51,629 nucleotides of DNA from an uncultured Alphaproteobacteria bacterium (GTDB lineage: Bacteria > Pseudomonadota > Alphaproteobacteria > RUG11792). A program made the position numbers and the translations under genes. The notes under the pieces were generated by a model. It did not search any database and was not told the origin of the DNA. It saw nothing but the letters and a program-made list of their open reading frames with translations. This document shows, piece after piece, positions 113 through 41,805 of this stretch. The DNA lies in contig CAUDEV010000001.1 in the NCBI GenBank assembly GCA_958448685.1, forward strand, positions 1-51,629, in the 5' to 3' direction. Every line of letters begins with the position of its first letter. Positions within the stretch are counted from its first letter, which is position 1.

Positions 113-154
113 GCGCGGCGTGTTGTATAATATCAAAGATATCACACGCCGCGC
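113..154. repeat. GC-rich hairpin repeat, copy A (inner stem degenerate)
   Basis: gcgcggcgtgt (113-123) is the reverse complement of acacgccgcgc (144-154). The loop ATAATATCAAAGATA matches the loops of the copies at 25102, 31539 and 41764. Confidence 0.8.
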
Positions 155-239
155 CTGTTATTATCCGCGCTTTGAAAAGCGGACTTTAGCGCCCCAGATC
201 TCCCTACTTTATAAATTCATCTATTCGCGTTGCCAGCGC

Positions 240-851
240 CTATGTCGGGGATAATGCCGGAACTTCAGGAATAATTGATAAAGCTTTACATTCTTTATTC
301 TTAAATACTAAACGATTTTTCACAACAATTCTCAGGAAATATCCATGATATGTGATACGTTTCAGAAAAATAGGAAAGCTTCTCATACGAAGCCTTTGTT
401 CCATTTTCTTTCTTGGAGCATCACGTTCCTTCAGAATTTTGATCATCGCTTCACGACGTTTTTCCTCACGAATCTCCTTTTTTGACATCACATGACGTGC
501 AAACTTCACATTACAAACATTCATCAAAAGTTTCTCGATATAATATTTCGAAGGAGATCCAATCCCGGGAATCCGAAGGTCACGTGCCACAATTTCGATT
601 CCATTATAATCATCCATATCAGATTCATAACCCCTGAAATTTAGACGACACTCCATCGCAAGAAACAAGGTTTTACCATGTTTATCATGAAGTTTTATAA
701 GTTGAGGACGCATAAAACATTCTTCATATTTCTTATTAATTCTAATAAAAATTTCTGGTTTTTTGTGATCCTCAATACGGCGGTTATCAAACTTAATCTG
801 CTTAAGCTTGACATCTTTCTCACCACCCCAAATTGTCATATAAATTCTCAT
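240..851 (-). CDS. hypothetical phage protein with a helix-hairpin-helix-like motif (RIPGIGSPSKYYIEKLL)
   Basis: 203-aa ORF with ATG at 851 and TAG stop at 240-242. Only the IPGIG HhH-like motif is recognisable. No integrase or recombinase motifs seen. Confidence 0.5.
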   Translation of the reverse strand: MRIYMTIWGGEKDVKLKQIKFDNRRIEDHKKPEIFIRINKKYEECFMRPQLIKLHDKHGKTLFLAMECRLNFRGYESDMDDYNGIEIVARDLRIPGIGSPSKYYIEKLLMNVCNVKFARHVMSKKEIREEKRREAMIKILKERDAPRKKMEQRLRMRSFPIFLKRITYHGYFLRIVVKNRLVFKNKECKALSIIPEVPALSPT

Positions 852-922
852 AAATTACTTCTAAAAGTTGATAATTGTTGTTATTAAGTTGCGCCATTTG
901 TTATAACTCCTTTTATATTATT

Positions 923-1049
923 TTTTCGAAAGGAACGAGGAGAGAGGGATTGATTTACGAAATTTAGTCAAGTCAAAAGAGTGAGTGGAACGAACGAGAC
1001 TTGACGAAATGGGAGTAAATCAATATAATCGTTTCCGCCTTTCGGAAAA
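923..1049 (-). ncRNA. candidate IS110-associated structured RNA (bridge/seek-RNA-like long hairpin in the 3' non-coding end)
   Basis: Nested inverted repeats: ttttcgaaagg/cctttcg(g)aaaa, aacg/cgtt, attgatttac (949-958)/gtaaatcaat (1015-1024), gtcaagtc (967-974)/gacttgac (998-1005). Two internal loops both start GAAAT. Confidence 0.3.
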
Positions 1050-1090
1050 TGTGCCGTGTTGAGTAGTAGTAAAAGTAGGGTTGTTTTTCA

Positions 1091-2122
1091 TCATGATTGA
1101 CCTCCTTTGGCTATTGATGAAGGATATATTGTTACGTTGTTGCTTGAAGGTTGGTTTAACAATTTTAACCCCTCTATCAAGCTAGGTTCTTTAAGCACTT
1201 CTCGCACTATTGCGTTGAGGTGTATTATCATCTTCCTCATACAGGCTACAAGGGCAGTCATTTTCCTTTTACCTTTCTTGACTAGCCTGTTGTAAAAGGT
1301 GGAGATGTTTTCGTTATATCTGATTGCACTTAGTGCTGCCATATATAATGTCCTCTTAACTATTGGTCTGCCGCAGCCTGCTGTCGTCATATGTCCTTTC
1401 TTGGTTCCACTTTCTCGTACATATGGAACTAATCCCGACAAGGCTGCTACCTTTTTATTTTTTAATGTCCCTATCTCTGGTAAGTATACCATAATCTTTA
1501 TTGCTGTTGTCAATGATACTCCACTATATTTTATCATAGATTCTACTTTTTTATTCCCTTTTTTACTTTTCTTTAATAATTCCTTTATTTTATTCTCAAC
1601 TTCTTGTATAATTTTATTTCTTTGTTCGATCGACTTTTCTATAATTTCTTCTATACCCCAATATCCAGGACTTTGTAATCTGTTCTTTTCCGCAGCTCTT
1701 TGTCTTTTCAACTCTTCCAAGTATGTCATTAACTTCTTTAATTCTTCTTCTGTTTCATCTGTTTTGTTATACAATCTCAAATCCTCATGACGCTCTTTCC
1801 CATATTGCGCCAAGGCTTTCGAATCCAATAAATCTGTTTTTGCTTTCTGTCCCAATGATTCTACATAGTGTTTAAAACTCTTATTTTCTGTTTTGTGTAT
1901 TGCAAATCCCATCTTAGTTAATGCTTTCACACATTTCTTTTCATATCCTCCCGTATTTTCCAGTATTACCAAGCTTCCTGCCTGTTCCACTTTCTTAAAA
2001 GCCGTTTCTATATTCTTAGTTCTATTTGCTATAGTCATATGTTTATTTGTCCCTAAGTTAAATATATCTACTTTATCCTTAGCTACATCGATTCCGATAA
2101 AATTTTTAAAATTCATTATCAA
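1091..2122 (-). CDS. IS110-family transposase (DEDD RuvC-like N-domain plus Tnp C-domain)
   Basis: 343 aa. Motifs seen: IGIDVAKDK, ILENTGGYEK, KTDLLDSKALAQY and the C-terminal LSGLVPYVRESGTKKGH with a serine. This is the typical IS110/IS1111 layout. Confidence 0.9.
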   Translation of the reverse strand: MIMNFKNFIGIDVAKDKVDIFNLGTNKHMTIANRTKNIETAFKKVEQAGSLVILENTGGYEKKCVKALTKMGFAIHKTENKSFKHYVESLGQKAKTDLLDSKALAQYGKERHEDLRLYNKTDETEEELKKLMTYLEELKRQRAAEKNRLQSPGYWGIEEIIEKSIEQRNKIIQEVENKIKELLKKSKKGNKKVESMIKYSGVSLTTAIKIMVYLPEIGTLKNKKVAALSGLVPYVRESGTKKGHMTTAGCGRPIVKRTLYMAALSAIRYNENISTFYNRLVKKGKRKMTALVACMRKMIIHLNAIVREVLKEPSLIEGLKLLNQPSSNNVTIYPSSIAKGGQS

Positions 2123-2380
2123 TCTCCTTTCAGACTATAGTCCTCTATTATTAACGTGTTTATTTCAACACTTCATGCCGTTCGAACTTAATTTCATGAA
2201 GTATGGCGCCTAACATTTTCCACGGGTTTATTCCATCCCTATTAACCTACAAGCTACCATACTTCGTTTTGCTGTCACGGCCATGACAACAAAATCTCTC
2301 TTCTTTATGGTTCAAGACAACATGCAATGAACCACAAAATATATCCTAGAACATACAGAGAAAGAGAGCCAATTGTCGCT

Positions 2381-2548
2381 TCAGCGACGTCCCTCCAACT
2401 CCATTTGTTCATCTTCCTTCACCTCTGGCATAGGCTCCCAGCATAATCCTGGACGCTCTTTGATTAACATCATTCCAAAATGCTCTATCTCAGCCAACTG
2501 CTCTGAGTTGGCTAAGACTTGTATTGTCATTAATGTCTGTTTAATCAT
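2381..2548 (-). CDS. small hypothetical phage protein (55 aa)
   Basis: Strong SD AAGGAGG 4 nt upstream of the ATG at 2548. ATGA overlap with the upstream gene's stop. Not in the ORF track because it is short. Confidence 0.55.
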   Translation of the reverse strand: MIKQTLMTIQVLANSEQLAEIEHFGMMLIKERPGLCWEPMPEVKEDEQMELEGRR

Positions 2549-2883
2549 GCTGCCTCCTTGGAGAAAATACTCTCTCTTGTTGGCAAAGGTTTGTTTAATT
2601 CCCTAAAATACTCTTCATGTGCTTTCAATCTCTGCTCATGATACCAAGCATTTAGTTTATCAGTGCAATAGTCATATTCATCACGTGTCTTACACGAGCT
2701 ATATAACCTATCTAAAGCATTATCTTTTTTGTCAGCTAGTTCCTTAATCTTGGCAAAGTATCTTCCTTTTGGAGTTTTCCTTAATTGCTTTTCCATTTTT
2801 GCTTGCCAGGAATAAGAGGGTACATTCCTATCAAATGTCCTGCTGAATTGCTCCAATTCTTGCATTTGCGATATATTATTCAT
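2545..2883 (-). CDS. hypothetical phage protein (112 aa)
   Basis: ORF-track ORF. SD GGAGG precedes the ATG, and it is translationally coupled on both sides (TAATG upstream, ATGA downstream). Confidence 0.6.
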   Translation of the reverse strand: MNNISQMQELEQFSRTFDRNVPSYSWQAKMEKQLRKTPKGRYFAKIKELADKKDNALDRLYSSCKTRDEYDYCTDKLNAWYHEQRLKAHEEYFRELNKPLPTRESIFSKEAA

Positions 2884-2996
2884 TATGCATCCTCCCTAGT
2901 GTTAGCTTCTTCTATAAGGAAGATTAAAATATCAAATAAATTTGCTTGTGCATTAACATACCACTCTTTGATTCTGTCTAATCTCTGTGTATTCAT
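2883..2996 (-). CDS. small hypothetical phage protein (37 aa)
   Basis: SD AGGAGGG then ATG at 2996. TAA at 2883-2885 overlaps the next ATG. Its initiation region GGAGG.TGCATAATGAATA is nearly identical to that of the next gene. Confidence 0.45.
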   Translation of the reverse strand: MNTQRLDRIKEWYVNAQANLFDILIFLIEEANTREDA

Positions 2997-3030
2997 TATG
3001 CAGCCCTCCTGAGTGAACGATAATCTTTTA

Positions 3031-3246
3031 TCATTTTCCACTTCTTTGCATAAGAATTAGCGAGATTCTCTCAGATTCCTCATAGGCCTGTACACGTGCA
3101 TTTAATACGCGTATAGCCCTTTCGTAGTCCTCTACGTATTATCCTAAGTCTGCTTCTACTTGAGTTTTCTCTGCGCATTCTACCGCAAACATAGCCTCTA
3201 ACTCAGCCTCTGAAGGTCCCGCTATTATTATTTCTTGATTGTTCAT
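3031..3246 (-). pseudogene. small phage ORF interrupted by one in-frame TAA (3139-3141)
   Basis: Reads MNNQEIIIAGPSEAELEAMFAVECAEKTQVEADLG-TAA-YVEDYERAIRVLNARVQAYEESERISLILMQRSGK-TGA. The 35 codons after the TAA contain no usable start codon. Confidence 0.5.
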
Positions 3247-3251
3247 ATGTA

Positions 3252-3404
3252 CTCCATTTACTACTAAAACCATCTCATGCCTCAGCAAAAATACCAAAGC
3301 ATGAGCATTCACCCCCGGTCGTAGTAAATGGAAAATAAACCAGAGGTGAAATCTTTCTAAAATTTTGATTTATAAAAATCATTTTCTGTCTCCATTTACT
3401 ACTA
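3252..3404 (-). promoter_or_regulatory. triple repeat: two SD-containing copies and one complementary copy
   Basis: ctccatttactacta occurs at 3252-3266 and 3390-3404, each directly upstream of an ATG on the minus strand. The reverse complement gtagtaaatgga occurs at 3321-3332. Confidence 0.55.
3275..3382 (-). CDS. candidate leader ORF (35 aa) containing an anti-SD copy
   Basis: GGAG, 7 nt, then ATG at 3382; TGA at 3275-3277. Codons FPFTT are encoded by the inverted copy of the 12-nt repeat. Confidence 0.3.
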   Translation of the reverse strand: MIFINQNFRKISPLVYFPFTTTGGECSCFGIFAEA

Positions 3405-3523
3405 TCAACAGCACCATTGCTATTGATAAATATCTCATAACATAGTGTTTAGAGCATGTCAAGAGGTTATTTGCATTTTCTTTGTAATTTAATTACACGT
3501 TTTTGCATTTTGCTTAATATTTT

Positions 3524-3904
3524 TTAGGAAAAGGTTTCGTCTATTATTCTCTTAATCTTATTAAAAATTGTTTTGTCTTTTTGTATAGCTGTTTTTATAG
3601 TTAATTTTATTGATGGATTTAGATTTTCTCGTTTTTCAACACTAGTAAAATCAGAACCACTAATAGAAAAATATTTTGTGATATTTATGTAAGACTGGTG
3701 AGACAGGCATTGTAATTGATGAGTCTCCAAGTATACCAAATGGTCTTTCTCATACTGATAAGGTCGTTTTTCATCCACTGAATTTATAAATAAAAACAAA
3801 TTATCCTTGTTTGAAATACAGATAACAAATTTATCTTTTGGAGGAATAGACTGTTTACATTGTTTTATAAAATAAACCGTTCCAGATTCGAATTTAAAAC
3901 TCAT
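3524..3904 (-). CDS. candidate toxin partner of the PanA-like antitoxin (126 aa, no recognised domain)
   Basis: Its ATG at 3904 directly abuts the TAA of the upstream DUF4065 gene. The size and two-gene architecture are typical of PanAT pairs. Confidence 0.5.
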   Translation of the reverse strand: MSFKFESGTVYFIKQCKQSIPPKDKFVICISNKDNLFLFINSVDEKRPYQYEKDHLVYLETHQLQCLSHQSYINITKYFSISGSDFTSVEKRENLNPSIKLTIKTAIQKDKTIFNKIKRIIDETFS

Positions 3905-4453
3905 TTAAAATACCAAAAACAATGATTCCTGTTTTAAATCCTCAATGATATCCTCTTTATTGGGGTTATCGTCTTGTATGAGTAACTCGTAATCCATATC
4001 TTTATTTTCTTCTGCACTTTCCCAAGCTTTTTCTTTGTGAGTAATATCAAAAAGGTCTTTAAAAGTTTTATCCTTACAGAAATCAAATGCTGTATCTAAA
4101 CACTCAATATCAGATTCAGAAAACAAATCAATATTCGCTTCTCTTAATGGAGAGATTAATTTTTCTTTACCATTCTGAGTTACTATAAATGATTTCAAAA
4201 TTTTATTAAAAAACTCTGAACTGAACTTAAAACTATTAAAATTAATAATATCTAAAACTTCAGAAGGAACAGGACCGCACTTCATCCTTATATAAGTATC
4301 TCCAATAATAGGACGCCCATATTTGTTTAAGTGTTCTTTGTCCGCATAAAAAAGCGTCTTTACAACATGATAATGATCTATATTTGGTTTCTTGTTTGCC
4401 AAATATAATACCCCCTCCAGTGCTTTATCGCTATTTACCCGAAACTTGATCAT
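3905..4453 (-). CDS. Panacea/DUF4065 (SocA/GepA-like) antitoxin-domain protein
   Basis: The segment VVKTLFYADKEHLNKYGRPIIGDTYIRMKCGPVPSEVLDIINF matches the KLxYxA...G.PitG..y....GPVp signature of DUF4065. Strong SD AGGAGG upstream. Confidence 0.7.
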   Translation of the reverse strand: MIKFRVNSDKALEGVLYLANKKPNIDHYHVVKTLFYADKEHLNKYGRPIIGDTYIRMKCGPVPSEVLDIINFNSFKFSSEFFNKILKSFIVTQNGKEKLISPLREANIDLFSESDIECLDTAFDFCKDKTFKDLFDITHKEKAWESAEENKDMDYELLIQDDNPNKEDIIEDLKQESLFLVF

Positions 4454-4532
4454 AACCTTATCTCCGATTACCTCCTAACCTTTCAATATAATTCTACCCG
4501 AAACAAAAGCAGATAGCCAGAGTTATTTCTTA

Positions 4533-5027
4533 TTAAAACTGAAAATGCCCAAATGGATCCCACCAAATAGGAATGAATTCGTCATGGTATGCAATTTCTA
4601 TAACTGCAAAGATGTTTTCACTTGGTCCGATACCACAGCATTGAGCTCCGTCGCATTTAAAAAGCCTCATTCTGTTGTCTTTTAGAATATCTTCAGAAAT
4701 ACCCATTTCTAATAAATTATCTCTACAGAAAGCCTCTTTCGATACTGGCTTGGATCTTAAACATTCTTTCGTTAAAGTTTGCTCGCATGTGAGTTTCGTT
4801 AAGTAATCCAACGACCTCGAAACAATCCACACACCATTTCCGCCTATCTTTTCAAGAGTATCCAAAGAATAGAAGTAGTTAAAAAATGTCAACGGATAGG
4901 TATTGTATCTGCTGTTTTCATGGCGTCTATACCAAAATTCTGGATTGATATCATACGAAAAACGAAATTCCGGCTTAGGAATGAACTCTTTAATATTTTC
5001 TCTTCCATCAAAAATTTTATTCATCAT
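4533..5027 (-). CDS. hypothetical protein (164 aa)
   Basis: ORF-track ORF with no recognised motif. Lies in the accessory region between the TA pair and the early genes. Confidence 0.5.
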   Translation of the reverse strand: MMNKIFDGRENIKEFIPKPEFRFSYDINPEFWYRRHENSRYNTYPLTFFNYFYSLDTLEKIGGNGVWIVSRSLDYLTKLTCEQTLTKECLRSKPVSKEAFCRDNLLEMGISEDILKDNRMRLFKCDGAQCCGIGPSENIFAVIEIAYHDEFIPIWWDPFGHFQF

Positions 5028-5079
5028 AATTCTAAAAAATAAAAAGCAAAAATAAAAAATATAATAAAATTTTACAATA

Positions 5080-5301
5080 TTATTTCTTATTTTTCTCCAA
5101 TAACTTTTTATATTGACTGATTCCGCTCTTAACGTCCTCTTTAGAAATATTTAGAAAATCACTAAGAGACCCAATGGCTTTAGGGTCATTTCTGAGAATC
5201 ATTGCCCTGAAATCTTCTTCGGAGATTTTTTTTGCCCTATTTAATTTCAGGGCGGTTTCAAGGAACTTTTCCGCTAAAACATGAAATAAAGTTTTAAACA
5301 T
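5080..5301 (-). CDS. small hypothetical protein, possible early regulator (position only)
   Basis: Divergent from the ERF gene across a 65-110-nt AT-rich region (depending on the ERF start used) that contains the palindrome ATTTATAAAT. I prefer the ATG at 5301 over the GTG at 5307. Confidence 0.4.
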   Translation of the reverse strand: MFKTLFHVLAEKFLETALKLNRAKKISEEDFRAMILRNDPKAIGSLSDFLNISKEDVKSGISQYKKLLEKNKK

Positions 5302-5414
5302 ATTCACATTAAATCTAATAATATTATAAATAATTATAACAAAAGTATTTATAAATTTAATATAAATATGTAATGATTATAAAAGGAAAATGTTATTCGA
5401 TATATTACTTGTCT

Positions 5415-20293: not shown

Positions 20294-20371
20294 ACTTCTT
20301 CTCCCTTATATTCTTATGTTTTATTTAATTTTATATCTATATTATATCAAATATTATTATAAATATATACT

Positions 20372-25101: not shown

Positions 25102-25149
25102 GGCGCGCGACATGTGGTAAAATATCAAGGATACCACATGTCGCGCGCC
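25102..25149. repeat. GC-rich hairpin repeat, copy B (perfect 18-bp stem)
   Basis: ggcgcgcgacatgtggta (25102-25119) pairs with taccacatgtcgcgcgcc (25132-25149). Loop is aaatatcaagga. Confidence 0.9.
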
Positions 25150-25416
25150 GGTATATCCCCTTATATTTTTAGTATATCTTCAATATCTCCTATATGTCAA
25201 AAAATAAAAAGTCCCATAAAATTTTAAAGATTTTACAGTGTTTTTAAATATTTTAAAATGTGATAACTATGATAAAATTAACGGCATTAGTAGTAACAAT
25301 GTTAATGATTCATAGAGTCACATTATCATTTCTGATTACTCATTCAAATCTATATGGGAGGGACTTTTGAAGGTTGTTTTTACTAAATTATCCTTAACCC
25401 AAATACCAATAATAGA

Positions 25417-29604: not shown

Positions 29605-29883
29605 GATCGATTTTTAGAACAAATACCTAATTTTATTATTATATCATATAATTAATTTTTATGCAAACAAATTAAATAATAAATTCACTTTGATATAACA
29701 CAAATTTAATTATGATTAAAGAAATTCCCTGTTGTTTTCATAAGCGCCTAACTAAAATATCATTGAAATAAAAAGAAGTAAAATTAACGGAAAATTTACC
29801 TTTTTTTTTAGAATTGAAAATAGGGAAGAAAAGTTGTGAAAATGCTTCCCTATAACGTAAATATAATTTTTATGGAGGTTTTT

Positions 29884-31512
29884 ATGAATAAATTATTACA
29901 AACAGCATTAATCTCAGCTATTTTATCAACAGGTCTTATGGCTCAAACTACAGAACCATTACTCTTGGAAGGAAGTATAAATATGGAAGGTGGTGAATTT
30001 CAAATATCTAAAAATGATTACAAACTAACTGGAAATATGGATTTTCATATGGGCGGGAAATTAACAATTGATGCTAATCGAACTCTTGAAGTTAATGGCG
30101 GACATATCATGAGTGATCATGCTGGCATGGGTGTTTCTGAATTCACTTTAAATGGAATCTTAAGATTGACAAAAGGAGGTGATGATGGAACACAAATGCC
30201 GAATCTAATGTTTGAGAGTATGAGACTTTCATCTGGGACTTCAGAGATAATTGACACATTTAGTTATTCAGCAGATGGACAAACATATATAGTAAAAATT
30301 CCAGAGATAGGACTGTCTATAAAAAGTGGAGACTTCGTAGCAACGAAGTATAAAACGACCCAAACAATTTTAACAGATGATATTCAGAACACGGCGTTAG
30401 GAGATAATCAAACAGAGAGCAATCCGAATGAAACTGAGGTAGTTATCATAATTGAAAATGAAGATAGTTCTGTTTGGATTAAGAAAGGAAAAATTACGGA
30501 AAGTGAAGTTGGAGAAGAACCTTCTTTATATAAGTCATCTGCTTTTTATTGGACGAATACCAGTTCTGACAGCAAAGAGCAATTGATAGAAGTAAAAAGC
30601 CTGACTGAAGGGGAAGGATATGACTATTATGAAAAATTAGATCTTAGTAAGTTTGTCCAAAATGGAGGACTCATTGATATGTCAACACTTAGAGAATATA
30701 CAAGTACACTTGAAAATGATGCAACAGAACCAACGAATCTAGGTGTGAATGGAGTTAATCCAATTGTTCTGGGAACAGTTAAACTGCCATTTAATTGCAG
30801 TTTTGGAATTTGCGATTTATCTAATGTTGATAAAGTTGAATATACAAAACTCACAGTTGGTGAAAGTTCTGCTCCTGGTTTAGAACCTCTTATGGACGGA
30901 GAAGGTGAAAATGCAAAGTTGAAATATAACTATATCAAAAAGATAGTATTGAAAGAAGGTCAAGTTTATGGTGATTATCTGACTAACAAGGAATTAGGAA
31001 TAACACTAACAACCAAAAATGCGGAAATTACTGAAAAAATGGTTGATGGTGATGTGACATCACTAGAACTCGAAAAATTACAGAAAGATACATATGAAGT
31101 GAAGGATAGCGAAGATAATCAAATAAAGTTTAATGCAGAAGGCACAACAAATAGACTTTGGACAGATGATCTAAATGTTGTAGCTCAAGATATTTCAGCA
31201 AATACGACCTATAACTTCGGATTTTCAGGTTCTAAAGCTGTTAACATTTCAGGAGAAGGGAAAGCAATATTCAAAGGTAATAACACTGAATATGAACCAG
31301 ATGAAATGATTGGAGTGCCAAATGAAGTTGAATTTGTGGGAAATAATACTCTCTTCCAATTTAGTCAAAATTATGGACACGGGATATTTTCCAAGGGATC
31401 TGAAAATTGGGCTAGTAATACTGTCCCTGAAAACAAAACAATTGCATTTTCAAATGGATTTGATATTACATCTGGATGTGGTCTACGAGTTCGAGGAAAA
31501 CTCATAGGATAG
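29884..31512 (+). CDS. secreted protein of unknown function (about 540 aa)
   Basis: SD GGAGG then ATG at 29884. Signal peptide MNKLLQTALISAILSTGLMAQT. No outer-membrane barrel or enzyme motif recognised. Confidence 0.6.
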   Translation: MNKLLQTALISAILSTGLMAQTTEPLLLEGSINMEGGEFQISKNDYKLTGNMDFHMGGKLTIDANRTLEVNGGHIMSDHAGMGVSEFTLNGILRLTKGGDDGTQMPNLMFESMRLSSGTSEIIDTFSYSADGQTYIVKIPEIGLSIKSGDFVATKYKTTQTILTDDIQNTALGDNQTESNPNETEVVIIIENEDSSVWIKKGKITESEVGEEPSLYKSSAFYWTNTSSDSKEQLIEVKSLTEGEGYDYYEKLDLSKFVQNGGLIDMSTLREYTSTLENDATEPTNLGVNGVNPIVLGTVKLPFNCSFGICDLSNVDKVEYTKLTVGESSAPGLEPLMDGEGENAKLKYNYIKKIVLKEGQVYGDYLTNKELGITLTTKNAEITEKMVDGDVTSLELEKLQKDTYEVKDSEDNQIKFNAEGTTNRLWTDDLNVVAQDISANTTYNFGFSGSKAVNISGEGKAIFKGNNTEYEPDEMIGVPNEVEFVGNNTLFQFSQNYGHGIFSKGSENWASNTVPENKTIAFSNGFDITSGCGLRVRGKLIG

Positions 31513-31538
31513 AATTAATAAATATATATTAGAGAAGC

Positions 31539-31580
31539 GCGCGGCGCATGGTATAATATCAAAGATACCATGCGCCGCGC
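31539..31580. repeat. GC-rich hairpin repeat, copy C (15-bp stem)
   Basis: gcgcggcgcatggta (31539-31553) pairs with taccatgcgccgcgc (31566-31580). Loop is taatatcaaaga. Confidence 0.9.
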
Positions 31581-31816
31581 ATCTGGAAATCGCTATTTAT
31601 CGGCGCAAAGCAATTCAGAAGATACATTCGATTGATTTTTATCAAATTTAGAAAACTTCGAAGAAAATTATATTATCATGCACATCATGCACTTTTACAA
31701 ATCAGATTCAATTAAAGTTATCGCAATATGGATAGATTTTGTGATAACATATATAAGAATAAAAAGTAGGACTTAATAAGAATTAGCATAGAGTTAATTA
31801 AGAAGAAAGGTTTTTA

Positions 31817-33889: not shown

Positions 33890-33917
33890 AAGGCGGGCAT
33901 AGCACATCGCCTTTTTC
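33890..33917 (+). terminator. rho-independent terminator of pnp
   Basis: aaggcg (33890-33895) pairs with cgcctt (33908-33913), followed by a T-run. Confidence 0.6.
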
Positions 33918-34355
33918 TAAAGTTCCGAGAGTTTTTGAGATCGTTTATAAGTTTGTGTAAAGTGAAAATATATTCTCAGGATATTTCAAAGCTGTATCAT
34001 GGTAATTATCAGAGTATTCATTATCTTATAGCCACTTCAAGACTCTCATAACGTCATGAATCGCACCTAAATCCTTTCTTTCACAATTTTATTTTTCATA
34101 TTTACACAAATTTTTGGATAATTTTGAAAAAAGGATAAGAAATAATTCCCGTATTTCAAAAAATCGGATAGATAATTTTGGCGAATTATTAACATTTTAA
34201 AAATACCCTAAGAAGACTTATTTATATGATACAAATCCAATAGGATCATTTAATTGAAATATGAGGAAATATACGAAAAACAAGCCTATTTCTGAATGAA
34301 AAATCGGTTATAATTTACCCACAGTTAGTTTATATTTCTGGACGGTCTCGTAGTT

Positions 34356-35279
34356 TTATATCTGTATTTTTTCTACTTCTTTTAGTGAAATTAACTTTTC
34401 GACTAAACGTTCGAGTTCCTCACATGACTTACAAATCAATGTAAAAACCCCACCTTTACGCGTGATTTTTAGTTTTGTTTCCACATTTAGGGCCTCAGCT
34501 ACTCTGATTGCAATATCCATACTTTCCGGATCTGTTTGCATATCAATAGGAGTTCCTGATTTTGTTTGTGGTGGCGTTTCAGGCATGTTATAGCTATTAT
34601 TTTGCAAATTATCCATATTTCCTCCAGCACGTAAATCTTTGAGAGAGTTCTCCAATTGACGTACTGTCAGTCCTTGATCTACTGAAATTTCGGCAATTTC
34701 TTCTGCATTTGAGATTCCAGATAGAATTTTCCCATGACCTGCTGTTAATCTCCCCTGACGTATTAAATCACGCACTCTTTTGGGCAACGCGAGTAATCTC
34801 AAAGAATTCGCAATATAACTGCGACTTTTCGAGACGATATATCCCAAATCGTTTTGTTTGCAATCGCAAAGTTCCATTAAGTTTTCTAGAGCTTCTGCTT
34901 CTTCAATAGGATTTAAATCTGCTCTTTGCAGGTTTTCAATCAGTCCTAAGGTCATTTTTTCAATACTATCGCACTCTATGACATGGACGGGCATTTCTGT
35001 CAAACCTGCTAATTTTGAAGCCCTCCAGCGTCTTTCTCCTGCAATGATTTCATACTTCCCATCTTGCTCCCGAACAGTTATAGGTTGCAAGACTCCATGA
35101 AGACGTATTGAATCTGCTAATTCTTTTAATTTTTCTTCGTCAAAATTTTTACGTGGCTGGGATGGATTTGGAAATATTAAATCAATACTTATCATATTTG
35201 AGCGCATATTATTTCTTATTTGTTCTTCCTCATTTTCTCCTAATAATGCAGATAATCCTCTTCCTAATTTTTGTTCCAT
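34356..35279 (-). CDS. parB: chromosome partitioning protein ParB
   Basis: MEQKLGRGLSALLG start, then NPSQPRKNFDEEKLKELADSIRLHGVLQPI and GERRWRASKLAG boxes. Confidence 0.9.
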   Translation of the reverse strand: MEQKLGRGLSALLGENEEEQIRNNMRSNMISIDLIFPNPSQPRKNFDEEKLKELADSIRLHGVLQPITVREQDGKYEIIAGERRWRASKLAGLTEMPVHVIECDSIEKMTLGLIENLQRADLNPIEEAEALENLMELCDCKQNDLGYIVSKSRSYIANSLRLLALPKRVRDLIRQGRLTAGHGKILSGISNAEEIAEISVDQGLTVRQLENSLKDLRAGGNMDNLQNNSYNMPETPPQTKSGTPIDMQTDPESMDIAIRVAEALNVETKLKITRKGGVFTLICKSCEELERLVEKLISLKEVEKIQI

Positions 35280-36046
35280 TTTCCTGATTTCTCCTTTTCT
35301 AAAAATTCTTTTGCTAACTCCATATATGCGCATGAACCCACGCATTTTACATCATAAATCAATACTGGCCGCCCATAAGAGGGAGCTTCTGATATTTTAA
35401 TATTTCTTGGAATAATACTTTTGAATACTGAGTCTCCTAGATGTTTTCGCACATCATTTTCGACAGATATACTTAATGAATTACGTTTATCATACATAGT
35501 TAATACTATGCCAAAGAGTTTTAATCCTGGGTTATATGCCTTTCGTATTCTATTAATTGATCCTAAAAGATAGCTTAGACCTTCCAACGCATAATATTCG
35601 CATTGCAAAGGCACTAAGACTCCATTTGCCGCTACAAGAGAGTTTAAACTGAGAATTCCCATTGAAGGTGGTGAATCTATTATTATATAGTCAAACATTT
35701 CTCCATATGCTTCTAAAGCCGTTTTTAAGATACTTTCACGATTTTTTTCTTGGACTAACTCAATTTCTGCCCCAACTAGATCAAGGCTGGCCGGAATTAA
35801 TGTTAAACTTGGTATGCTGGTTTTTGTAATTACCTCAGCAAGTGTTTTGCTCCTCGTCAAGAGATCATAGCTGGTGTTTATTTTTTTTGAATATACACCT
35901 AATCCAGTGGTCGCATTACCTTGAGGATCAAAGTCGATTAAAAGTACACGTTTTTTTATGGCCGCAAATGCAGTCGCTAGGTTTACTGCTGTAGTTGTCT
36001 TTCCGACTCCGCCTTTTTGATTTGCTATAGAAATTACTGTTGCCAC
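35264..36046 (-). CDS. parA: chromosome partitioning ATPase ParA (Soj)
   Basis: Deviant Walker A NQKGGVGKTTTAVNLA, then IDFDPQGNAT. Confidence 0.9.
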   Translation of the reverse strand: MATVISIANQKGGVGKTTTAVNLATAFAAIKKRVLLIDFDPQGNATTGLGVYSKKINTSYDLLTRSKTLAEVITKTSIPSLTLIPASLDLVGAEIELVQEKNRESILKTALEAYGEMFDYIIIDSPPSMGILSLNSLVAANGVLVPLQCEYYALEGLSYLLGSINRIRKAYNPGLKLFGIVLTMYDKRNSLSISVENDVRKHLGDSVFKSIIPRNIKISEAPSYGRPVLIYDVKCVGSCAYMELAKEFLEKEKSGKWNKN

Positions 36047-36618
36047 TACTTTCTCCTTATATTTTCAATTAATAGTATTGCGCTTTTGAGATTTGTAACA
36101 CTAGGTTTAGCCAAGAAGTCAAATTCAAAAAAATGTTTTGCTTCTTCTATTTCTTTCATATAATTTTCACCTTTATGAAAAACCCCTTTCAATATTTTCT
36201 TTTTATTTAGAAAGTCAATTAAAATTGATAACGAACCAAATGCTCTAGATGTTGCAATTGTATTTTGCAATGTTTCACGTGAAACATTTAATTTAAAAAC
36301 ATCTCCATTAAATATATCATAATTTAAATCTAACTTCTTTTTTAAATATCTTAAAAAGATACATTTCTTTAGATTTTTTTCACACAATAAAACTTTTTTA
36401 TAGCCATATATTGATAAAGGCACTCCAGGAAATCCCGCCCCAGAACCTATATCTATAATGTAATTATCCTTGTCAATAAAATCAACTATTTGAAGACTGT
36501 CTTTAACATGACGAAGGAAATAATCATTCAATGTGTCTTTTTGGACTAAATTAATTTTTTTGTTCCATTCTTTCAAAATCGATAAGTATTTGTCAAATAG
36601 CTCATTTTGCTGCATCAA
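36046..36618 (-). CDS. rsmG: 16S rRNA (guanine527-N7)-methyltransferase RsmG (GidB)
   Basis: SAM motif DIGSGAGFPGVPLSI. Position immediately upstream of parAB. Confidence 0.85.
   Translation of the reverse strand: MMQQNELFDKYLSILKEWNKKINLVQKDTLNDYFLRHVKDSLQIVDFIDKDNYIIDIGSGAGFPGVPLSIYGYKKVLLCEKNLKKCIFLRYLKKKLDLNYDIFNGDVFKLNVSRETLQNTIATSRAFGSLSILIDFLNKKKILKGVFHKGENYMKEIEEAKHFFEFDFLAKPSVTNLKSAILLIENIRRK
36271..36286. promoter_or_regulatory. parS site 1 (inside rsmG)
   Basis: tgtttcacgtgaaaca matches the parS consensus TGTTNCACGTGAAACA. It encodes VSRET in rsmG. Confidence 0.85.
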
Positions 36619-36684
36619 TTGATTGTTAAATCAGCCTCTTACTATAAGTCTATCATGAATTTTTTTATCTTTCAATAAATAAAA

Positions 36685-36700
36685 TGTTTCACGTGAAACA
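36685..36700. promoter_or_regulatory. parS site 2 (supplies the rimI stop codon)
   Basis: tgtttcacgtgaaaca sits within the 22-bp perfect palindrome aaatgtttcacgtgaaacattt. The rimI TGA (36689-36691) lies inside it. Confidence 0.85.
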
Positions 36701-37159
36701 TTTTGAATTTATAATTTTCTGCATCAAATAAGCATCCGTATTTTTAAAATAAGCCTTTCTTAAGAAGATTATCTTAAATTCTTGCTTCTTATAAAATTCA
36801 ATAGCTATTTTATTTGTAACAGAAACTTCAAGGAAAATTTTGAATTCTGATTTAGAAATGTTCCACGTGAAACATTTTGAATTTAAAAGTGCTGTACCAA
36901 TACCCATTTTTCGATAATTGGGATGAGTTGCTATATATACGATATCTGCTTCGAAATCAGATACCTGAAATATAATATATCCTAGCAATGTTTTATTTAA
37001 GAATGCTCCCGCAGTTTTGTATTGTTGAAGATTTAAATAGGCGTTAAGAGAAGAATCTGAAATTGGATAGTTAGCAAAATGTTTCACGTGAAACATTTTC
37101 AAATTTTGAAAATCATTAAGATTTAAAATTCTAATATGAATATTCTGGAGTAAATCCAT
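36689..37159 (-). CDS. rimI: ribosomal-protein-alanine N-acetyltransferase (GNAT) RimI
   Basis: GNAT motif A (IATHPNYRKMGIGTALL). Directly downstream of tsaB, as is usual. Confidence 0.7.
   Translation of the reverse strand: MDLLQNIHIRILNLNDFQNLKMFHVKHFANYPISDSSLNAYLNLQQYKTAGAFLNKTLLGYIIFQVSDFEADIVYIATHPNYRKMGIGTALLNSKCFTWNISKSEFKIFLEVSVTNKIAIEFYKKQEFKIIFLRKAYFKNTDAYLMQKIINSKCFT
36859..36874. promoter_or_regulatory. parS site 3 (inside rimI)
   Basis: tgttccacgtgaaaca. The C at 36863 makes the rimI codon TGG (W) instead of TGA. Confidence 0.85.
37080..37095. promoter_or_regulatory. parS site 4 (inside rimI)
   Basis: tgtttcacgtgaaaca, read as MFHVKH in rimI. Confidence 0.85.
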
Positions 37160-37715
37160 AATTTATTTGAAGATCTGTGTTTATAAATTGAGAATTTAGT
37201 AAAATAAGAGAAGTATTTAGGAGATCCATTTGAAGTTTTGCTAAGTTAATATTTGAAAATAACCCTGAACTCTCAGCAAATATTAGCTCATTATTTTGTG
37301 AATACTCTTTTGACAAATTTTCTATATTTATTTCCTCTAATTTATTGTTATTGAATCGAGAAGTGAAATAGTCTCCTCGCATTGTCGGGATACCAATAGT
37401 TCCTTTTGAGTAAGTTTCATTTAAGACTTTAAGATAAGTCAGAAAATGGGAAATTCCGCAAAATTTAGCTGTTGGAAAGGAAATTGCAAAGGCCTTTACG
37501 ATAGAATTAATAATTCGAATACTTGTAAAAGAGCAAGGCCCCGAAGAATAGATTAAATTTTCTAAATTATTGATTGAACATTTCGAAATAACATCAGAAA
37601 TAAAAAGAGGTATATTGTCCGCAAGATTCCTCGTTTCGGTTTCAATATATATGTCTTCCAGATCTCCACAAACTATATGAAATTCCTTGCCTTTCAAGAA
37701 AATAGAAATATTCAT
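37131..37715 (-). CDS. tsaB: tRNA t6A37 biosynthesis protein TsaB (YeaZ)
   Basis: GPCSFTSIRIINSIVKAFA matches the GPGSFTGLRIG signature. Synteny with rimI. Confidence 0.7.
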   Translation of the reverse strand: MNISIFLKGKEFHIVCGDLEDIYIETETRNLADNIPLFISDVISKCSINNLENLIYSSGPCSFTSIRIINSIVKAFAISFPTAKFCGISHFLTYLKVLNETYSKGTIGIPTMRGDYFTSRFNNNKLEEINIENLSKEYSQNNELIFAESSGLFSNINLAKLQMDLLNTSLILLNSQFINTDLQINYGFTPEYSY

Positions 37716-38398
37716 TGACGTCTGATCTCGACTTCCGTATATTTTGAAATATCAGCTAAAACATTCTCATCAGGCAGAGGTATGTTCAAATCTTTGCCTG
37801 AAGAACGTATTATGCACTCTTGCAAAACCCACTTTTTAACACCTTTTGAATTTAAAAATTTTGCAATATTAATTAGATCTTCTGAATTGATATTTCTTGA
37901 ATCTACAGTGGTTCTGATTTCAAAATTTATTCCAGAATTTCGAAGTAATTCAAAAGATTCCAAAGCTAGTTTGCCGGAATTTGGCACTTTTGTTATATTT
38001 TCATATTTTTCAAAATCCGTTTTTATATCAAAACCCACCCAATCTAAAATAGGCAAAACTTGTTCAAATTTATTCGGAATTGTCCCGGCCGTATGAATTC
38101 CTGTTAAAAATCCCTCTTGTCTTATAATTGAAATTGCATCATATAGATCCTTTTGCATAAGAGGTTCTCCTCCACTAAACACAACTGCATCCAATAGATC
38201 TTTTCGTTCTTTCAGAAAAGATAAAAGTTCATCAAATTCAATAGTGGCCGGTTTTTTATAATCTTGAAAATCCGGATTATGGCAATAAACGCAACGTATT
38301 GGACAGCCTTGAGAAAAAACAACTGCAGATAATTTCCCCGGGTAATCTAAAGTAGAAAATTTTAAAACTGCAGCTATTTTAAAATCAAGAGTTGGCAT
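37712..38398 (-). CDS. radical SAM activating enzyme (NrdG/PflA-type)
   Basis: STLDYPGKLSAVVFSQGCPIRCVYCHNP contains the CxxxCxxC cluster, followed by the glycine-rich FSGGEPL. Confidence 0.65.
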   Translation of the reverse strand: MPTLDFKIAAVLKFSTLDYPGKLSAVVFSQGCPIRCVYCHNPDFQDYKKPATIEFDELLSFLKERKDLLDAVVFSGGEPLMQKDLYDAISIIRQEGFLTGIHTAGTIPNKFEQVLPILDWVGFDIKTDFEKYENITKVPNSGKLALESFELLRNSGINFEIRTTVDSRNINSEDLINIAKFLNSKGVKKWVLQECIIRSSGKDLNIPLPDENVLADISKYTEVEIRRQ

Positions 38399-38404
38399 AG
38401 ACTT

Positions 38405-40321
38405 TTATTCCGAAAAAGATTTAGATTTTTGTTCAAGATTTTTAAAGAATTCGAGCATAGAATTAAGATCTATTGTTAGTGTATCGTTTGAATTAAGTTG
38501 CCTGATACTAATAGCTCTTTTTTCAATTTCATTTTTCCCTAGGATTATAATAGCAGGAATCTTTGCAAGAGAATGCTGTCTGATTTTATAATTTATCTTC
38601 TCATTTTCCGTATCAAGCTCTGTTCTAAATCCTTCGTTTGCCAAAATAGATTGAACTTCCTTTGCGTAATCAATACTTTCATCCGTCACTGTTGCTATTG
38701 CAATCTGAACAGGAGCAAGCCAAAATGGAAATTTCCCAGCATAATTTTCAATAAGAATTCCAATAAATCTTTCCAGAGATCCCACAATTGCACGATGAAG
38801 CATAACCGGCGTTTGCTTGTTTCCATCAGGATCAATATAGTGAATATTAAAACGTTCTGGCAAATTGAAATCAACCTGAAGAGTTCCACATTGCCAATCA
38901 CGTCCGAGACAATCTTTCAAAACAAATTCTAATTTAGGACCATAGAAAGCTCCTTCACCTTTGTTTATAGTATAACTTAGGCCTGCAGCATTTGCCGCAT
39001 CCATGAGCGATTTTTCAGCTAAATCCCAAACTTCATCACTTCCAACGCGTTTTTCAGGGCGATCCGAAAATTTGACTTTAATTTCATGAAATCCGAAAGC
39101 AGCATAAATCTCTTTCAAGATTGAACAAACATCCATAGTTTCTGAAACTATTTGGTCTGAAGAACAGAAAATATGACCATCATCTTGCATAAACGCTCTT
39201 AGTCTCATGACTCCATGAAGTGAACCTGAGGATTCATTTCGATGACATAAACCAAATTCTCCCATACGAATTGGTAAATCGCGATAACTCTTGACGGCGC
39301 CTGTTTTATAACATATTATATGTCCCGGGCAATTCATAGGCTTTACGGCCATTTGAGTGTCTTCATCTTCAACAACAAACATATTTTCTTTGAATTTCGC
39401 CCAATGTCCAGAAGTTTCCCAGAGAGATTTATTCATAAGCTGTGGAGTTTGAACAAGAAAATATCCATGTTTTCTAATAACAGATGTAATGTAATCTTTA
39501 ATTAAATTAAATAAAATGCAACCGTTTTTTAACCAAAAAACATTTCCTGGAGCAACGTCATCCAAATGAAATATCCCCAATTCTGGCCCAAGTTTCCTGT
39601 GATCACGAGCTTGTGCTTCTTCAAGAAGAGTGAAATAAGCCGTCAGTTCTTTTTTTGTTGGGAAAACGGTCCCATAAATTCTTTGAAGCATATCATTCTT
39701 GCTATCTCCACGCCAATAAGCACCAGCAACAGAGGTCAATTTAAACGTCTCAGAAGAAATATATCCCGTTGAAGGAATATGAGGACCCCGACATAAATCT
39801 GAAAAATCTCCTATTGCATATATGCTTACTTTTTCAGAATCTATAGAGTCAATCAATTCGAGTTTATATTTCTGATCTTTTGAAGAGAAGTATTTTTTAG
39901 CTTCAGATTTTGTCATTTCAGAACGAACAAATGGCAAATTAGCCGCAATGATTTCTTTCATTTTTTGTTCTATCAATGGCAGCTGATCAATTGAAAAATC
40001 TTTTTCAGATTTTATATCATAATAAAATCCATTCTCAATGGCAGGTCCAATTGCTAATTTGGCCTTTGGATCTATTTCCAAAACCGCCTTTGCAAGAACA
40101 TGAGCTGTTGAATGACGAAGTATGTCAAGACCTTCTTGATCAGAATAGGTTAGTAATGTAATTTTATCATTTTCATTTAATTTCGTTGATAAATCAACAA
40201 GTTTTTCATTAATCTTTGCTGCTAAAACTTTTTTTTGTATACCGATTTTGCAAGCAAGATCTAATGCAGAAGAATCATCTTCTATTTCAAATTTTTCGTT
40301 ATTTTTTAAGTATATAATCAT
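38405..40321 (-). CDS. thrS: threonine--tRNA ligase
   Basis: 638 aa with an N-terminal TGS domain, the editing HSTAH motif, class II core motifs (HRNE, FHQFE-like) and an anticodon-binding C-terminus. Confidence 0.95.
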   Translation of the reverse strand: MIIYLKNNEKFEIEDDSSALDLACKIGIQKKVLAAKINEKLVDLSTKLNENDKITLLTYSDQEGLDILRHSTAHVLAKAVLEIDPKAKLAIGPAIENGFYYDIKSEKDFSIDQLPLIEQKMKEIIAANLPFVRSEMTKSEAKKYFSSKDQKYKLELIDSIDSEKVSIYAIGDFSDLCRGPHIPSTGYISSETFKLTSVAGAYWRGDSKNDMLQRIYGTVFPTKKELTAYFTLLEEAQARDHRKLGPELGIFHLDDVAPGNVFWLKNGCILFNLIKDYITSVIRKHGYFLVQTPQLMNKSLWETSGHWAKFKENMFVVEDEDTQMAVKPMNCPGHIICYKTGAVKSYRDLPIRMGEFGLCHRNESSGSLHGVMRLRAFMQDDGHIFCSSDQIVSETMDVCSILKEIYAAFGFHEIKVKFSDRPEKRVGSDEVWDLAEKSLMDAANAAGLSYTINKGEGAFYGPKLEFVLKDCLGRDWQCGTLQVDFNLPERFNIHYIDPDGNKQTPVMLHRAIVGSLERFIGILIENYAGKFPFWLAPVQIAIATVTDESIDYAKEVQSILANEGFRTELDTENEKINYKIRQHSLAKIPAIIILGKNEIEKRAISIRQLNSNDTLTIDLNSMLEFFKNLEQKSKSFSE

Positions 40322-40334
40322 TATTTCCCCTTAT

Positions 40335-40619
40335 TTATTCAACAACTTTCGGAACTGAATACATGTCAAATTTTTTGTATTTCGAGTTGCTCAATAACTC
40401 TTCTTTTGTGTTTGTCATTAATGGAATATCTTTTCTTTCAGGAGTATCTTCCATATCTTTCAGATTATTTATATCAACATCAGAAACATCAATTTTTGAG
40501 AGCTGCTCTATCCAATTGAAAACTTGGTTTAATTTATTGAGGAATTGATCTTTCTCGTTTTCCTCAATTTTAATTTTGGCTAACCGACAAACTTTGTCAA
40601 GATCCGTTATATTTAACAC
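40335..40619 (-). CDS. gatC: Asp/Glu-tRNA amidotransferase subunit C
   Basis: 94 aa with the pattern KVCRLAKIKIEENEKDQFLNKLNQVFNWIEQL, typical of GatC. Confidence 0.85.
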   Translation of the reverse strand: MLNITDLDKVCRLAKIKIEENEKDQFLNKLNQVFNWIEQLSKIDVSDVDINNLKDMEDTPERKDIPLMTNTKEELLSNSKYKKFDMYSVPKVVE

Positions 40620-40683
40620 GATTCATTTATGAAAATGATATTACACCTTATATGATATCATTTTATGGATAATTTTCCAATAC

Positions 40684-41664
40684 TCATAATATATGATCAT
40701 GACCTTTTAAAGTGATGATTCTTCCTCTTGGAGTTTTTTGAATTAATCCTCTTTGAATTAAATATGGCTCTATGACTTCTTCAATTGTATTTGCTGATTC
40801 ACAAAGTGCCGCTGCAATTGTGTCCAAGCCAACAGGACCTCCTCCAAATAGGTCTTTTATAATTCCAAGATACTTTTTATCTTCTGAATCCAATCCCATA
40901 GGATCAACATTTAATTGATCTAAAGAAGCAACCGTTATATCATAAGTTATTATTTTTTTCTCACTAAAACTTGAAAAATCCCGGATTCTCCTGAGCAATC
41001 TATACGCTATTCTTGGAGTTCCACGTGATCTTTTTGAGATTTCTAATGCTGCTGCTTCTTCTATTTCAAATCCCAATAAAGTTGTATTCCTCTCGATTAT
41101 TGAGGCTAGTTCTTCAATTGTATAAAATTCAAAACGAAGTGGTATACCAAAACGTTCACGCAATGGTTGAGTTAATAATCCTAATCGCGTTGTTGCTGCA
41201 ACGACAGTAAATTGAGGAATATCTATTCGAATGGATTTAGCAGTTTGTCCCTCTCCAATTAATATATCTATTTTAAAATCCTCCATTGCCGGATACAACA
41301 TTTCTTCAACAGCGGGATTCATACGATGTATTTCATCAATAAATAAGACATCCTTCTCATTCATATTTGTTAGTATAGCTGCTAAATCTCCAGGCTTTGT
41401 CAATATAGGACCAGATGTAATTTTTATGGAAGAGCCCATTTCATTAGCAATTATTTGTGCCATTGTGGTTTTTCCAAGTCCCGGAGGGCCTGATAAAAGA
41501 ACGTGATCCAAAGCCTCATTACGTGTTTTTGCTGCGTTTATGAAGACTTCTAAATTCTTGCATATTGCTTTTTGTCCTGTGAAATATTCCAAAGATTTTG
41601 GACGAAGAGACTTGTCTGCAAAAATATCTTCAGGTGATAAATTCGGAGTTACAATCCTATCCAT
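40684..41664 (-). CDS. ruvB: Holliday junction branch migration helicase RuvB
   Basis: LRPKSLEYFTGQ, Walker A GPPGLGKTT and Walker B LFIDEIHR. I prefer the ATG at 41664 (MDRIV...) over the track start at 41742. Confidence 0.95.
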   Translation of the reverse strand: MDRIVTPNLSPEDIFADKSLRPKSLEYFTGQKAICKNLEVFINAAKTRNEALDHVLLSGPPGLGKTTMAQIIANEMGSSIKITSGPILTKPGDLAAILTNMNEKDVLFIDEIHRMNPAVEEMLYPAMEDFKIDILIGEGQTAKSIRIDIPQFTVVAATTRLGLLTQPLRERFGIPLRFEFYTIEELASIIERNTTLLGFEIEEAAALEISKRSRGTPRIAYRLLRRIRDFSSFSEKKIITYDITVASLDQLNVDPMGLDSEDKKYLGIIKDLFGGGPVGLDTIAAALCESANTIEEVIEPYLIQRGLIQKTPRGRIITLKGHDHIL

Positions 41665-41763
41665 TATACTCTCATTATGAATAATTAAAATTATTATAAC
41701 ATATTTTGAATAGCTTTGATTATTTGTTGTTTTCGGGAACAAATAGATTTGGGAATCATGAGC

Positions 41764-41805
41764 GCGCGACGTGTGGTAAAATATTCAGGGTACCACACGT
41801 CGCGC
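41764..41805. repeat. GC-rich hairpin repeat, copy D (15-bp stem)
   Basis: gcgcgacgtgtggta (41764-41778) pairs with taccacacgtcgcgc (41791-41805). Loop is aaatattcaggg. Confidence 0.9.

Follow-up and report, generated by a model that had tools for sequence, protein, structure and literature searches.

The stretch of DNA analysed here (51,629 nt of contig CAUDEV010000001.1 from an uncultured Alphaproteobacteria bacterium, assembly GCA_958448685.1; hereafter the window) contains four GC-rich hairpins, which we name A to D and which belong to a family of dispersed palindromic repeats. The family comprises 17 distinct copies from the window and related genomes. The hairpins are probably a lineage-specific, duplicative repeat that resembles the repetitive extragenic palindromic (REP) sequences of E. 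coli and acts as an orientation-independent hairpin at transcript ends. The element, one DNA unit of approximately 42-48 bp, can be called REP-like if the term is taken broadly, and thus adds a new case to an already known kind.

Since the same sequence is common to unlinked loci, copies are gained and lost at individual sites and single arms do not occur, the hairpins share descent as one duplicative unit and did not evolve independently as terminators. Their position past stop codons and between convergent units, together with the replacement of a terminator at one site, suggests that they have a role at transcript ends irrespective of orientation. The first-pass annotation, an earlier reading of the window, had also proposed one homologous family, neither chance palindromes nor ordinary terminators, and the wider comparison bears this out.

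No report of palindromic repeats in Holosporales was found in one full-text literature search, and the family adds a well-resolved palindromic repeat to the uncultured gut bacteria resembling this order. It also provides a rare kind of comparative evidence at single orthologous sites, where compensated stems, exact loop inversion, gain and loss, and terminator replacement can be followed.

Hairpins of the window

The hairpins were located by reading the sites and by an inverted-repeat scan:

113-154, plus strand: hairpin A, arms of 16 nt (88% complementary), loop of 10 nt; subfamily 1, GCGCGGCG clamp
25102-25149, plus strand: hairpin B, arms of 18 nt (100% complementary), loop of 12 nt; subfamily 2, GCGCGCGAC clamp
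31539-31580, plus strand: hairpin C, arms of 16 nt (100% complementary), loop of 10 nt; subfamily 1
41761-41808, plus strand: hairpin D, arms of 18 nt (94% complementary), loop of 12 nt; subfamily 2

The four GC-rich intergenic hairpins described in the first-pass annotation were confirmed, with D extended to the limits given here. Its two subfamilies, starting with GCGCGGCG and GCGCGCGAC, and the lack of a T-run after all four window copies were also recovered. Its description of the stems as nearly pure G+C holds for the basal 8-9 bp, to which pure G+C is limited, but not for the whole hairpins, which have 50-62% GC in a window with a G+C content of 34%. Copy A is slightly decayed: its upper stem (TTGTA...TATCA) contains one T-C mismatch as well as one G-T pair.

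In the window the pattern GCGCG-N20-45-CGCGC matches only the four hairpin sites (0.02 expected), and the loop core GTAWAATATYMARGRTA, with up to two mismatches allowed, is found at the same four sites only (0.8 expected). The RNA folding energies of the hairpins range from -24 to -37 kcal/mol and their z-scores from -5.6 to -8.5. Chance palindromes are ruled out by these pattern counts and fold z-scores.

The copies are spaced 6-25 kb apart among housekeeping genes; with such spacing and no cas or intI genes, a CRISPR (clustered regularly interspaced short palindromic repeats) array and integron attC sites were ruled out. A replication-linked bias, considered because all four lie on the plus strand, was dropped since orientations are mixed in a related locus (L002) and loops flip between relatives. 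A DnaA box, an IHF site and a dif-like site in the loop were likewise dropped, the matches made by eye being partial and unconserved across copies.

Covariation and conserved parts

In the alignment of the family (A6; 17 sequences, 17 stem pairs), pairing is found in 97.0% of 263 cells. Double-sided changes occur in six of the 17 pairs (23 cells), and single unpaired or G-T cells are few. None of 500 shuffles reached the observed pairing, the count of double changes or the covariation score, and slid registers collapse. The compensatory changes quoted in the first-pass annotation are correct (A has TGT/ACA where C has CAT/ATG; B has A-T where D has G-C), and its view that pairing is kept by compensatory change now extends to the 17-copy alignment and to one orthologous locus compared between genomes. 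An indel between B and D, which it had assumed, proved wrong, D aligning to B without any.

Conservation differs along the hairpin. The basal clamp GCGCG/CGCGC is almost invariant, approximately 5 bp in the middle of the stem (columns 8-12) covary freely (TGT/ACA, CAT/ATG, CGT/ACG, ACGT/ACGT and others), and the top five pairs, TGGTA/TACCA, are invariant in all copies except A; the upper stem shows no covariation. The 5' end of the loop, WAAT, is invariant and the 3' half is variable. Thus, of the loop and stem top previously described as conserved, the top and the 5' WAAT stand, but not the 3' half of the loop or the decayed copy A. The purine-rich 5' flank noted at the same time is weak; the commonest 5' flank is (G/T)GA directly before the GC clamp, in approximately nine of 16 copies.

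The comparisons at single orthologous sites described below show that the maintained entity is the palindrome itself, and they separate structural constraint (stem middle) from sequence constraint (clamp, top and half-loop). The complementarity of the arms can reflect selection on folding or templated correction inside the hairpin, both of which fit the data equally well. Matches to Rfam 15 in the window are limited to a tRNA-Leu, with nothing at the hairpins or at the n, M and P modules described below.

Variation at orthologous sites

The closest genomes are metagenome-assembled genomes (MAGs) from mouse gut, including MGBC162888 (GCA_910588255.1) and GCA_950097285.1; other related loci carry L numbers. 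At locus C, identity between the window (31440-31700) and its orthologue in MGBC162888 is 95%, and the two stems do not differ. The 10-nt loop is AATATCAAAG in the window and the exact reverse complement, CTTTGATATT, in MGBC162888, and the flipped loop was found in four other assemblies too. At locus D, the window has GCGCGACGTGTGGTA and L016-19 have GCGCGGCACGTGGTA, with three compensated pairs (RuvB 98% identical); here the loop is flipped and also carries some substitutions. Three samples of the window's own strain have the window orientation at D and differ by one loop substitution. Phase variation was not seen in these three samples, and flips were seen solely between species.

Copies are also gained and lost. 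Site D is empty in L021 (RuvB 97%) and L025 (RuvB 96%), where the intergenic space is 76 and 42 nt, respectively, and the promoter-like TGTTATAAT of ruvB is kept in all four genomes compared at this site. Downstream of an mgsA-like gene, a hairpin separates the stop codon from a P promoter module in L027, whereas in L038 (RuvC 80%) the P module is present and the hairpin absent. Following greA, L027 carries a family hairpin 20 nt past the stop codon; the corresponding place in L038 is taken by a canonical terminator with a T-run. Judging from these sites, the unit enters intergenic DNA that was already there, is gained and lost, and changes in situ with its pairing kept. No copy was found in approximately 85 kb from relatives at 80-84% RuvB/RuvC identity, and the family, as seen in the genomes compared, originated in or was acquired by a narrow clade of Holosporales-like bacteria from the gut.

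The loop flips bear on the reading of the first-pass annotation, in which the hairpin is a folded element, of RNA or of single-stranded DNA, and a particular ligand or protein binds to its conserved loop. The covariation is real, the stem top and the 5' half of the loop are invariant and the fold is very stable, all of which would suit such an element. A ligand specific for the loop on folded RNA is, however, not supported, given the inverted loops at C and D and the mixed direction relative to the upstream transcription unit (eight canonical and three flipped copies in one-directional contexts). Since, with such flips and mixed directions, an RNA would carry either the loop or its complement, any sequence-specific reader would have to act on DNA or is not needed. 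The 3' half of the loop also varies freely, there is no Rfam match, and a DNA palindrome can gain compensation without selection at the RNA level. A loop-binding ligand is thus very unlikely.

Distribution of the family

When an exact loop-anchored pattern was searched over 185,579 species genomes, true hairpins were obtained only in MGBC162888 (five hits), the remaining eight of the 13 hits being chance matches without a hairpin. The 8-kb flanks of the MGBC162888 hits contain three more copies that the exact pattern could not reach. One more true copy (L014) came from a metagenome scan in which the stems and most of the loop were left free, and four others from loci fetched by RuvB/RuvC homologues: the D orthologue (L016-19), one copy in L021 and two in L027. 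In one L027 copy a G is bulged and one G:C pair is swapped to C:G; the other keeps the upper stem and loop and has lost the GC clamp.

A covariance model (R1) built from 12 copies and run with filters off over approximately 0.37 Mb retrieved only these copies, near full length except one truncated at the end of its contig; relics in clear decay were not found. The first-pass annotation had proposed a covariance model and a scan of relatives, and further copies do exist in relatives. A generic scan for GC-rich hairpins in part of the fetched AT-rich loci gave nothing further of such kind. The arm motif GCGCGG occurs 20 times within hairpins and twice outside; pairs of uptake sequences were ruled out, single arms being absent.

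At least 10 copies were read in MGBC162888 DNA, and sister assemblies add one at site D. A strict exact-pattern census of the whole MGBC162888 MAG gives five copies, which is a lower bound because MAGs break at repeats, and the density in the window is four copies per 51.6 kb. Both MAG and Logan contigs break at the hairpin repeats, which explain assembly breaks in these genomes and are usable as a clade marker.

Genomic context

All 17 copies are intergenic. Eight of them (C, D, the D orthologue, L002a, L002b, L021, L027c and L027d) lie 10-36 nt past a stop codon, one of these, L002a, between convergent genes at 10 and 18 nt from their stops; L007b and L003b lie between convergent promoter-bearing modules. 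In the window, A is at the end of an RNA-like repeat (n module), 85 nt from the 3' end of the open reading frame (ORF) 240-851 (minus strand), and B lies in DNA missing after ruvC in the sister species. C is found 26 nt past the stop of ORF 29836-31512 (plus strand) and 236 nt ahead of pnp, and D 33 nt past the stop of a MORN-repeat gene (41842-42423, minus strand), upstream of ruvB. Ordinary terminators with T-runs are also present in the genome, and a site-scan tool detected no terminator-like site at B. The earlier statement that the hairpins are not just terminators holds only in part, since the positions past stop codons and the replacement of the greA terminator suggest a role at transcript ends.

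Two further explanations concern the invariant stem top. If TGGTA and TACCA, 12 bp apart, were half-sites of a palindromic double-stranded operator for a dimeric DNA-binding protein, their invariance on both arms without covariation would be expected, and function independent of orientation agrees with the flips. However, perfect complementarity over 16-18 bp and compensated changes in the middle and clamp would be superfluous in an operator, the sites are past stop codons and not at promoters, and single arms never occur. This is the least probable of the explanations considered.

The stem top and WAAT, which form the sole contiguous invariant block, equal the motif TGnTAtAAT at every specified position. 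The hairpin could accordingly be read as a terminator-plus-promoter cassette in which the stem stops transcription from both sides, TGGTAWAAT restarts it one way as an extended -10 promoter and inversion of the loop redirects it. In the window TGnTAtAAT is found 25-40 nt upstream of five gene starts:

41693-41701, minus strand: TGnTAtAAT motif upstream of ruvB
43087-43095, minus strand: TGnTAtAAT motif upstream of a gene for 212 aa
46251-46259, minus strand: TGnTAtAAT motif upstream of a hybrid kinase gene
29638-29646, minus strand: TGnTAtAAT motif upstream of an hlyD-like gene
20341-20349, minus strand: TGnTAtAAT motif upstream of a prophage gene

The motif upstream of ruvB is kept in four genomes, and the site-scan tool rates copy C as promoter-like with a TG extension. 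Further in keeping with a cassette, covariation is seen in the middle of the stem but not in its upper part, loops are flipped at C and D, and in tandem-gene contexts six of nine copies are directed at the downstream gene. On the other side, TGNTAWAAT is common in AT-rich DNA (21 window sites against 13 expected), the bias of six in nine is not significant and eight copies are directed at gene 3' ends. Besides, ruvB has a promoter of its own, and the shared orientation at D in three window-strain samples does not indicate rapid switching. We regard the cassette as unlikely. Its more specific form, an insulator with a bidirectional stop and a loop promoter whose inversion (10-12 nt) is templated by the hairpin without an invertase, is more doubtful still. 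If true, the insulator would be the smallest known invertible promoter, dispersed through a genome, and the cassette would insert between genes without polar effects and rewire neighbours such as pnp and ruvB. Any promoter located in the loop would, if real, represent a new regulatory device. As a separate observation, the TGnTAtAAT sites suggest that -35-independent promoters with short leaders are common in this organism.

Repeat modules, prophage-like block and IS110-family element

Several copies form part of a mosaic with other repeats (modules n, M and P), of which the following were delineated together with the insertion sequence (IS) near hairpin A:

1-112, plus strand: n module, 3' part, cut by the window start
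L003 6050-6375 (minus strand), L007 4180-4490 and 5570-5875: n module in relatives
914-1050, minus strand: M module, repeated imperfect palindrome of approximately 135 nt
25150-25234, minus strand: P module, AAAATTTTATGGGACTTTTTA..TTGACA (25200-25195), 18 nt, TATACT (25176-25171); points at hairpin B
L027 17211-17300 and L038 16440-16530: P module in relatives
1091-2116, minus strand: IS110-family (DEDD) transposase gene, 1 kb from A, part of the repeat mosaic

The n module, of which there are at least five copies, consists of a TTGACA-17-TATATC promoter and a conserved, RNA-like stretch of approximately 250 nt. Of five aligned copies, four (A, L003b, L007a and L007b) end in a family hairpin and n5 does not. 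The module could represent either a small RNA gene present in multiple copies or a non-autonomous element. The RNA fold of the M module has -30.5 kcal/mol and a z-score of -2.6, and M stands alone twice in L003 and twice in L007. The P module is a repeated, strong promoter-like unit with the consensus AAAATTTTATGGGACTTTTTATTTTTTGACA-N17/18-TATMCT; it adjoins the hairpin in five family members, directed toward or away from it, and is kept at an orthologous locus even in a relative without the hairpin family. All Logan contigs of the window strain end within P, 221 nt past ruvC.

A and B flank a region of approximately 25 kb (prophage and IS) that is missing from the sister species. Its prophage-like block (2200-24905, approximately 2.2-24.9 kb) encodes tail, head-tail adaptor, internal virion, terminase-like, ERF, SocA/Panacea and DnaA_N/helix-turn-helix proteins, and contains no hairpin copies. 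In MGBC162888, ruvC is followed directly by an aroK-like gene, recR and hfq, and the block is therefore inserted or rearranged DNA. A and B were ruled out as hybrid att sites of a 25-kb insertion, since they belong to different subfamilies and each is self-complementary.

The transposase gene ends 40 nt from M. In the sister species M leads to a family hairpin within 15-30 nt (L003a and L003b), whereas in the window the end of the IS110-family element abuts M at approximately position 1050, exactly where other loci run on to the hairpin. This element raises the possibility that the hairpins are DNA targets of a structure-specific recombinase or transposase (IS110 with bridge RNA, a Y1 or REP-associated tyrosine transposase (RAYT)-like enzyme, or a phage integrase), with effects on transcripts being incidental. 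The position of the transposase gene 1 kb from A within a shared mosaic would fit, as would an M module that adjoins the transposase gene in the window and stands alone elsewhere, and the bracketing of the 25-kb block by A and B. The conserved clamp, top and half-loop would also suit a folded single strand that is recognised by its sequence. Insertion sequences target REPs in general (PMC1525189), and IS110-family elements are known to target REP hairpins: a DNA stem-loop is required in the target of ISPpu10 (10.64898/2026.03.19.712850), and ISPpu9 has a modular small RNA downstream of the transposase gene, with orphan copies elsewhere (10.1101/2025.01.17.633520).

Against this, the IS end abuts M and not a hairpin, and no hairpin or half-hairpin was found on either side of the one copy of the element available, the side away from M having been compared by a short-word BLAST that is uninformative here; insertion of IS110 into a hairpin is unsupported. 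No hairpin is split or duplicated around an insertion, the difference between A and B does not agree with hybrid att sites, and most copies have no mobile element nearby. RAYT or Y1_Tnp domains were found neither in Pfam scans of the window ORFs nor in the gene tables of the fetched loci, which represent a small fraction of any one genome. A search for a co-distributed recombinase, as the first-pass annotation had proposed, thus yielded an IS110-family transposase 1 kb from A, but one that abuts M, and no RAYT in the available sequence. The IS110-family element is associated with the repeat mosaic, and its link to hairpin targeting is a candidate one; hairpins serving mainly as DNA targets are conceivable and on balance unlikely.

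Proposed role at transcript ends

Under the reading favoured here, that of a REP-like dispersed repeat at transcript ends, the role would most simply be that of a very stable RNA hairpin. Transcription from either side would produce such a hairpin (-24 to -37 kcal/mol), which would mark and protect transcript 3' ends by blocking exonucleases and/or by terminating transcription from both directions without a U-tract, and would be functional in either orientation. The symmetry of the arms might be kept by templated repair inside the hairpin or by template switching on single-stranded DNA, and loop flips would be products of the same process. The conserved clamp and top could be read by the putative copying machinery of the element.

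Several points weigh against this. A T-run follows only one of the 17 copies (L002a, TTTTT), and because the U-tract is missing any termination would be non-canonical. The putative role at RNA 3' ends is deduced from position, and four copies lie approximately 20 nt downstream of the promoter-like P, where a strong terminator would be odd. A purely structural role leaves the invariance of the top and half-loop unexplained. On the side of mobility, the available sequence yielded no enzyme that could mobilise the element, and the copies showed neither target-site duplications nor defined ends. As for the likeness to REPs, the copy number looks like tens rather than hundreds, and the GTAG tetranucleotide that is conserved 5' of the hairpin foot in RAYT-associated REPs (PMC8266576) is absent from the flanks of all copies on both strands. 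Assignment to the RAYT-associated REP class is not established.

Relation to known elements

The family shares with REPs, REPINs (REP doublets) and bacterial interspersed mosaic elements of gamma-proteobacteria the short, species-specific extragenic palindromes, often just past genes and in either orientation, and the formation of mosaics with other repeated motifs; REPs also attract IS110-family elements (PMC1525189; 10.1101/2025.01.17.633520; 10.64898/2026.03.19.712850). REPs are extragenic and species-specific (PMC1525189), and REPINs form hairpins with frequent compensatory changes (PMC3116915). Unlike in REPs, the arms of the family are not themselves palindromes, the long stems pair perfectly over 16-18 bp and bear a GC clamp in a genome of 34% GC, and the top and half-loop do not vary.

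With intrinsic terminators the hairpins have in common the GC-rich fold 10-36 nt past stops, the location between convergent genes or promoters and the replacement of the greA terminator. They differ in that 16 of the 17 copies are without a T-run and that sequence, not just structure, is common between loci.

Hairpin-loop 'flip-flop' inversions in small inverted repeats are well known in chloroplast non-coding DNA. The exact reverse complementation of the loop between close relatives, with stems unchanged, is of the same appearance, whereas here the inversion affects dispersed repeats of a bacterium, at two loci of one lineage.

As with the targets of IS110/IS1111 elements (ISPpu9, ISPpu10 and IS621), an intergenic hairpin repeat is present in a genome with an IS110-family element, and M is similar to ssr9 of ISPpu9 in being a modular small RNA-like unit that follows the transposase gene and has orphan copies elsewhere. 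In contrast to such targets, the IS abuts the M repeat and no insertion into a hairpin was seen.

Host and other features of the window

The window is part of a bacterial chromosome, with genes for PNPase, ThrRS, an ABC-F protein, acetyl-CoA synthetase, a hybrid kinase, RuvB, RuvC, ParA, ParB, RsmG, GatC and tRNA-Leu. That it represents a phage genome was ruled out by the lack of a match in phage records and by the chromosomal genes (pnp, thrS, ruvABC-type, parAB and rsmG). Homologues of RuvB and RuvC at 56-82% identity carry the labels Holosporales bacterium or Alphaproteobacteria bacterium; the host is, as judged from its genes, a Holosporales-like gut bacterium known solely from mouse-gut MAGs. 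Exact look-ups of the window PNPase and IS110 transposase gave no match.

A parB-parA-rsmG (gidB) cluster is located at 34356-36618 on the minus strand, an order often seen near chromosomal origins. GC skew along the window tracks gene direction, without a clear switch.

ORF 29836-31512 (plus strand; 542-558 aa), which adjoins hairpin C, has no Pfam domain, and among 5.8 billion proteins its homologues are limited to its own cluster and one protein at 45% identity. ORF 240-851 (minus strand) has no Pfam match either, and a 25-aa ORF with a good ribosome-binding site lies just upstream in another frame; the gene (region 240-897, minus strand) may be frameshifted. A homologue with 73% DNA identity is found in the metagenome contig L014 (484-1740), where it adjoins a family hairpin and TGTGAC..GTCACA repeats that form an iteron-like array. 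The unit shared by 240-897 and L014 could be a replication module of a mobile element.

In L003 (991-1092, minus strand) there is a sub-threshold match (51 bits, the gathering score being 65; E 8e-6) to Rfam family RF03531, 'C. difficile sRNA included into helicase gene'. The match falls within an ORF for a UvrD/PcrA-like helicase and probably reflects conserved coding sequence.

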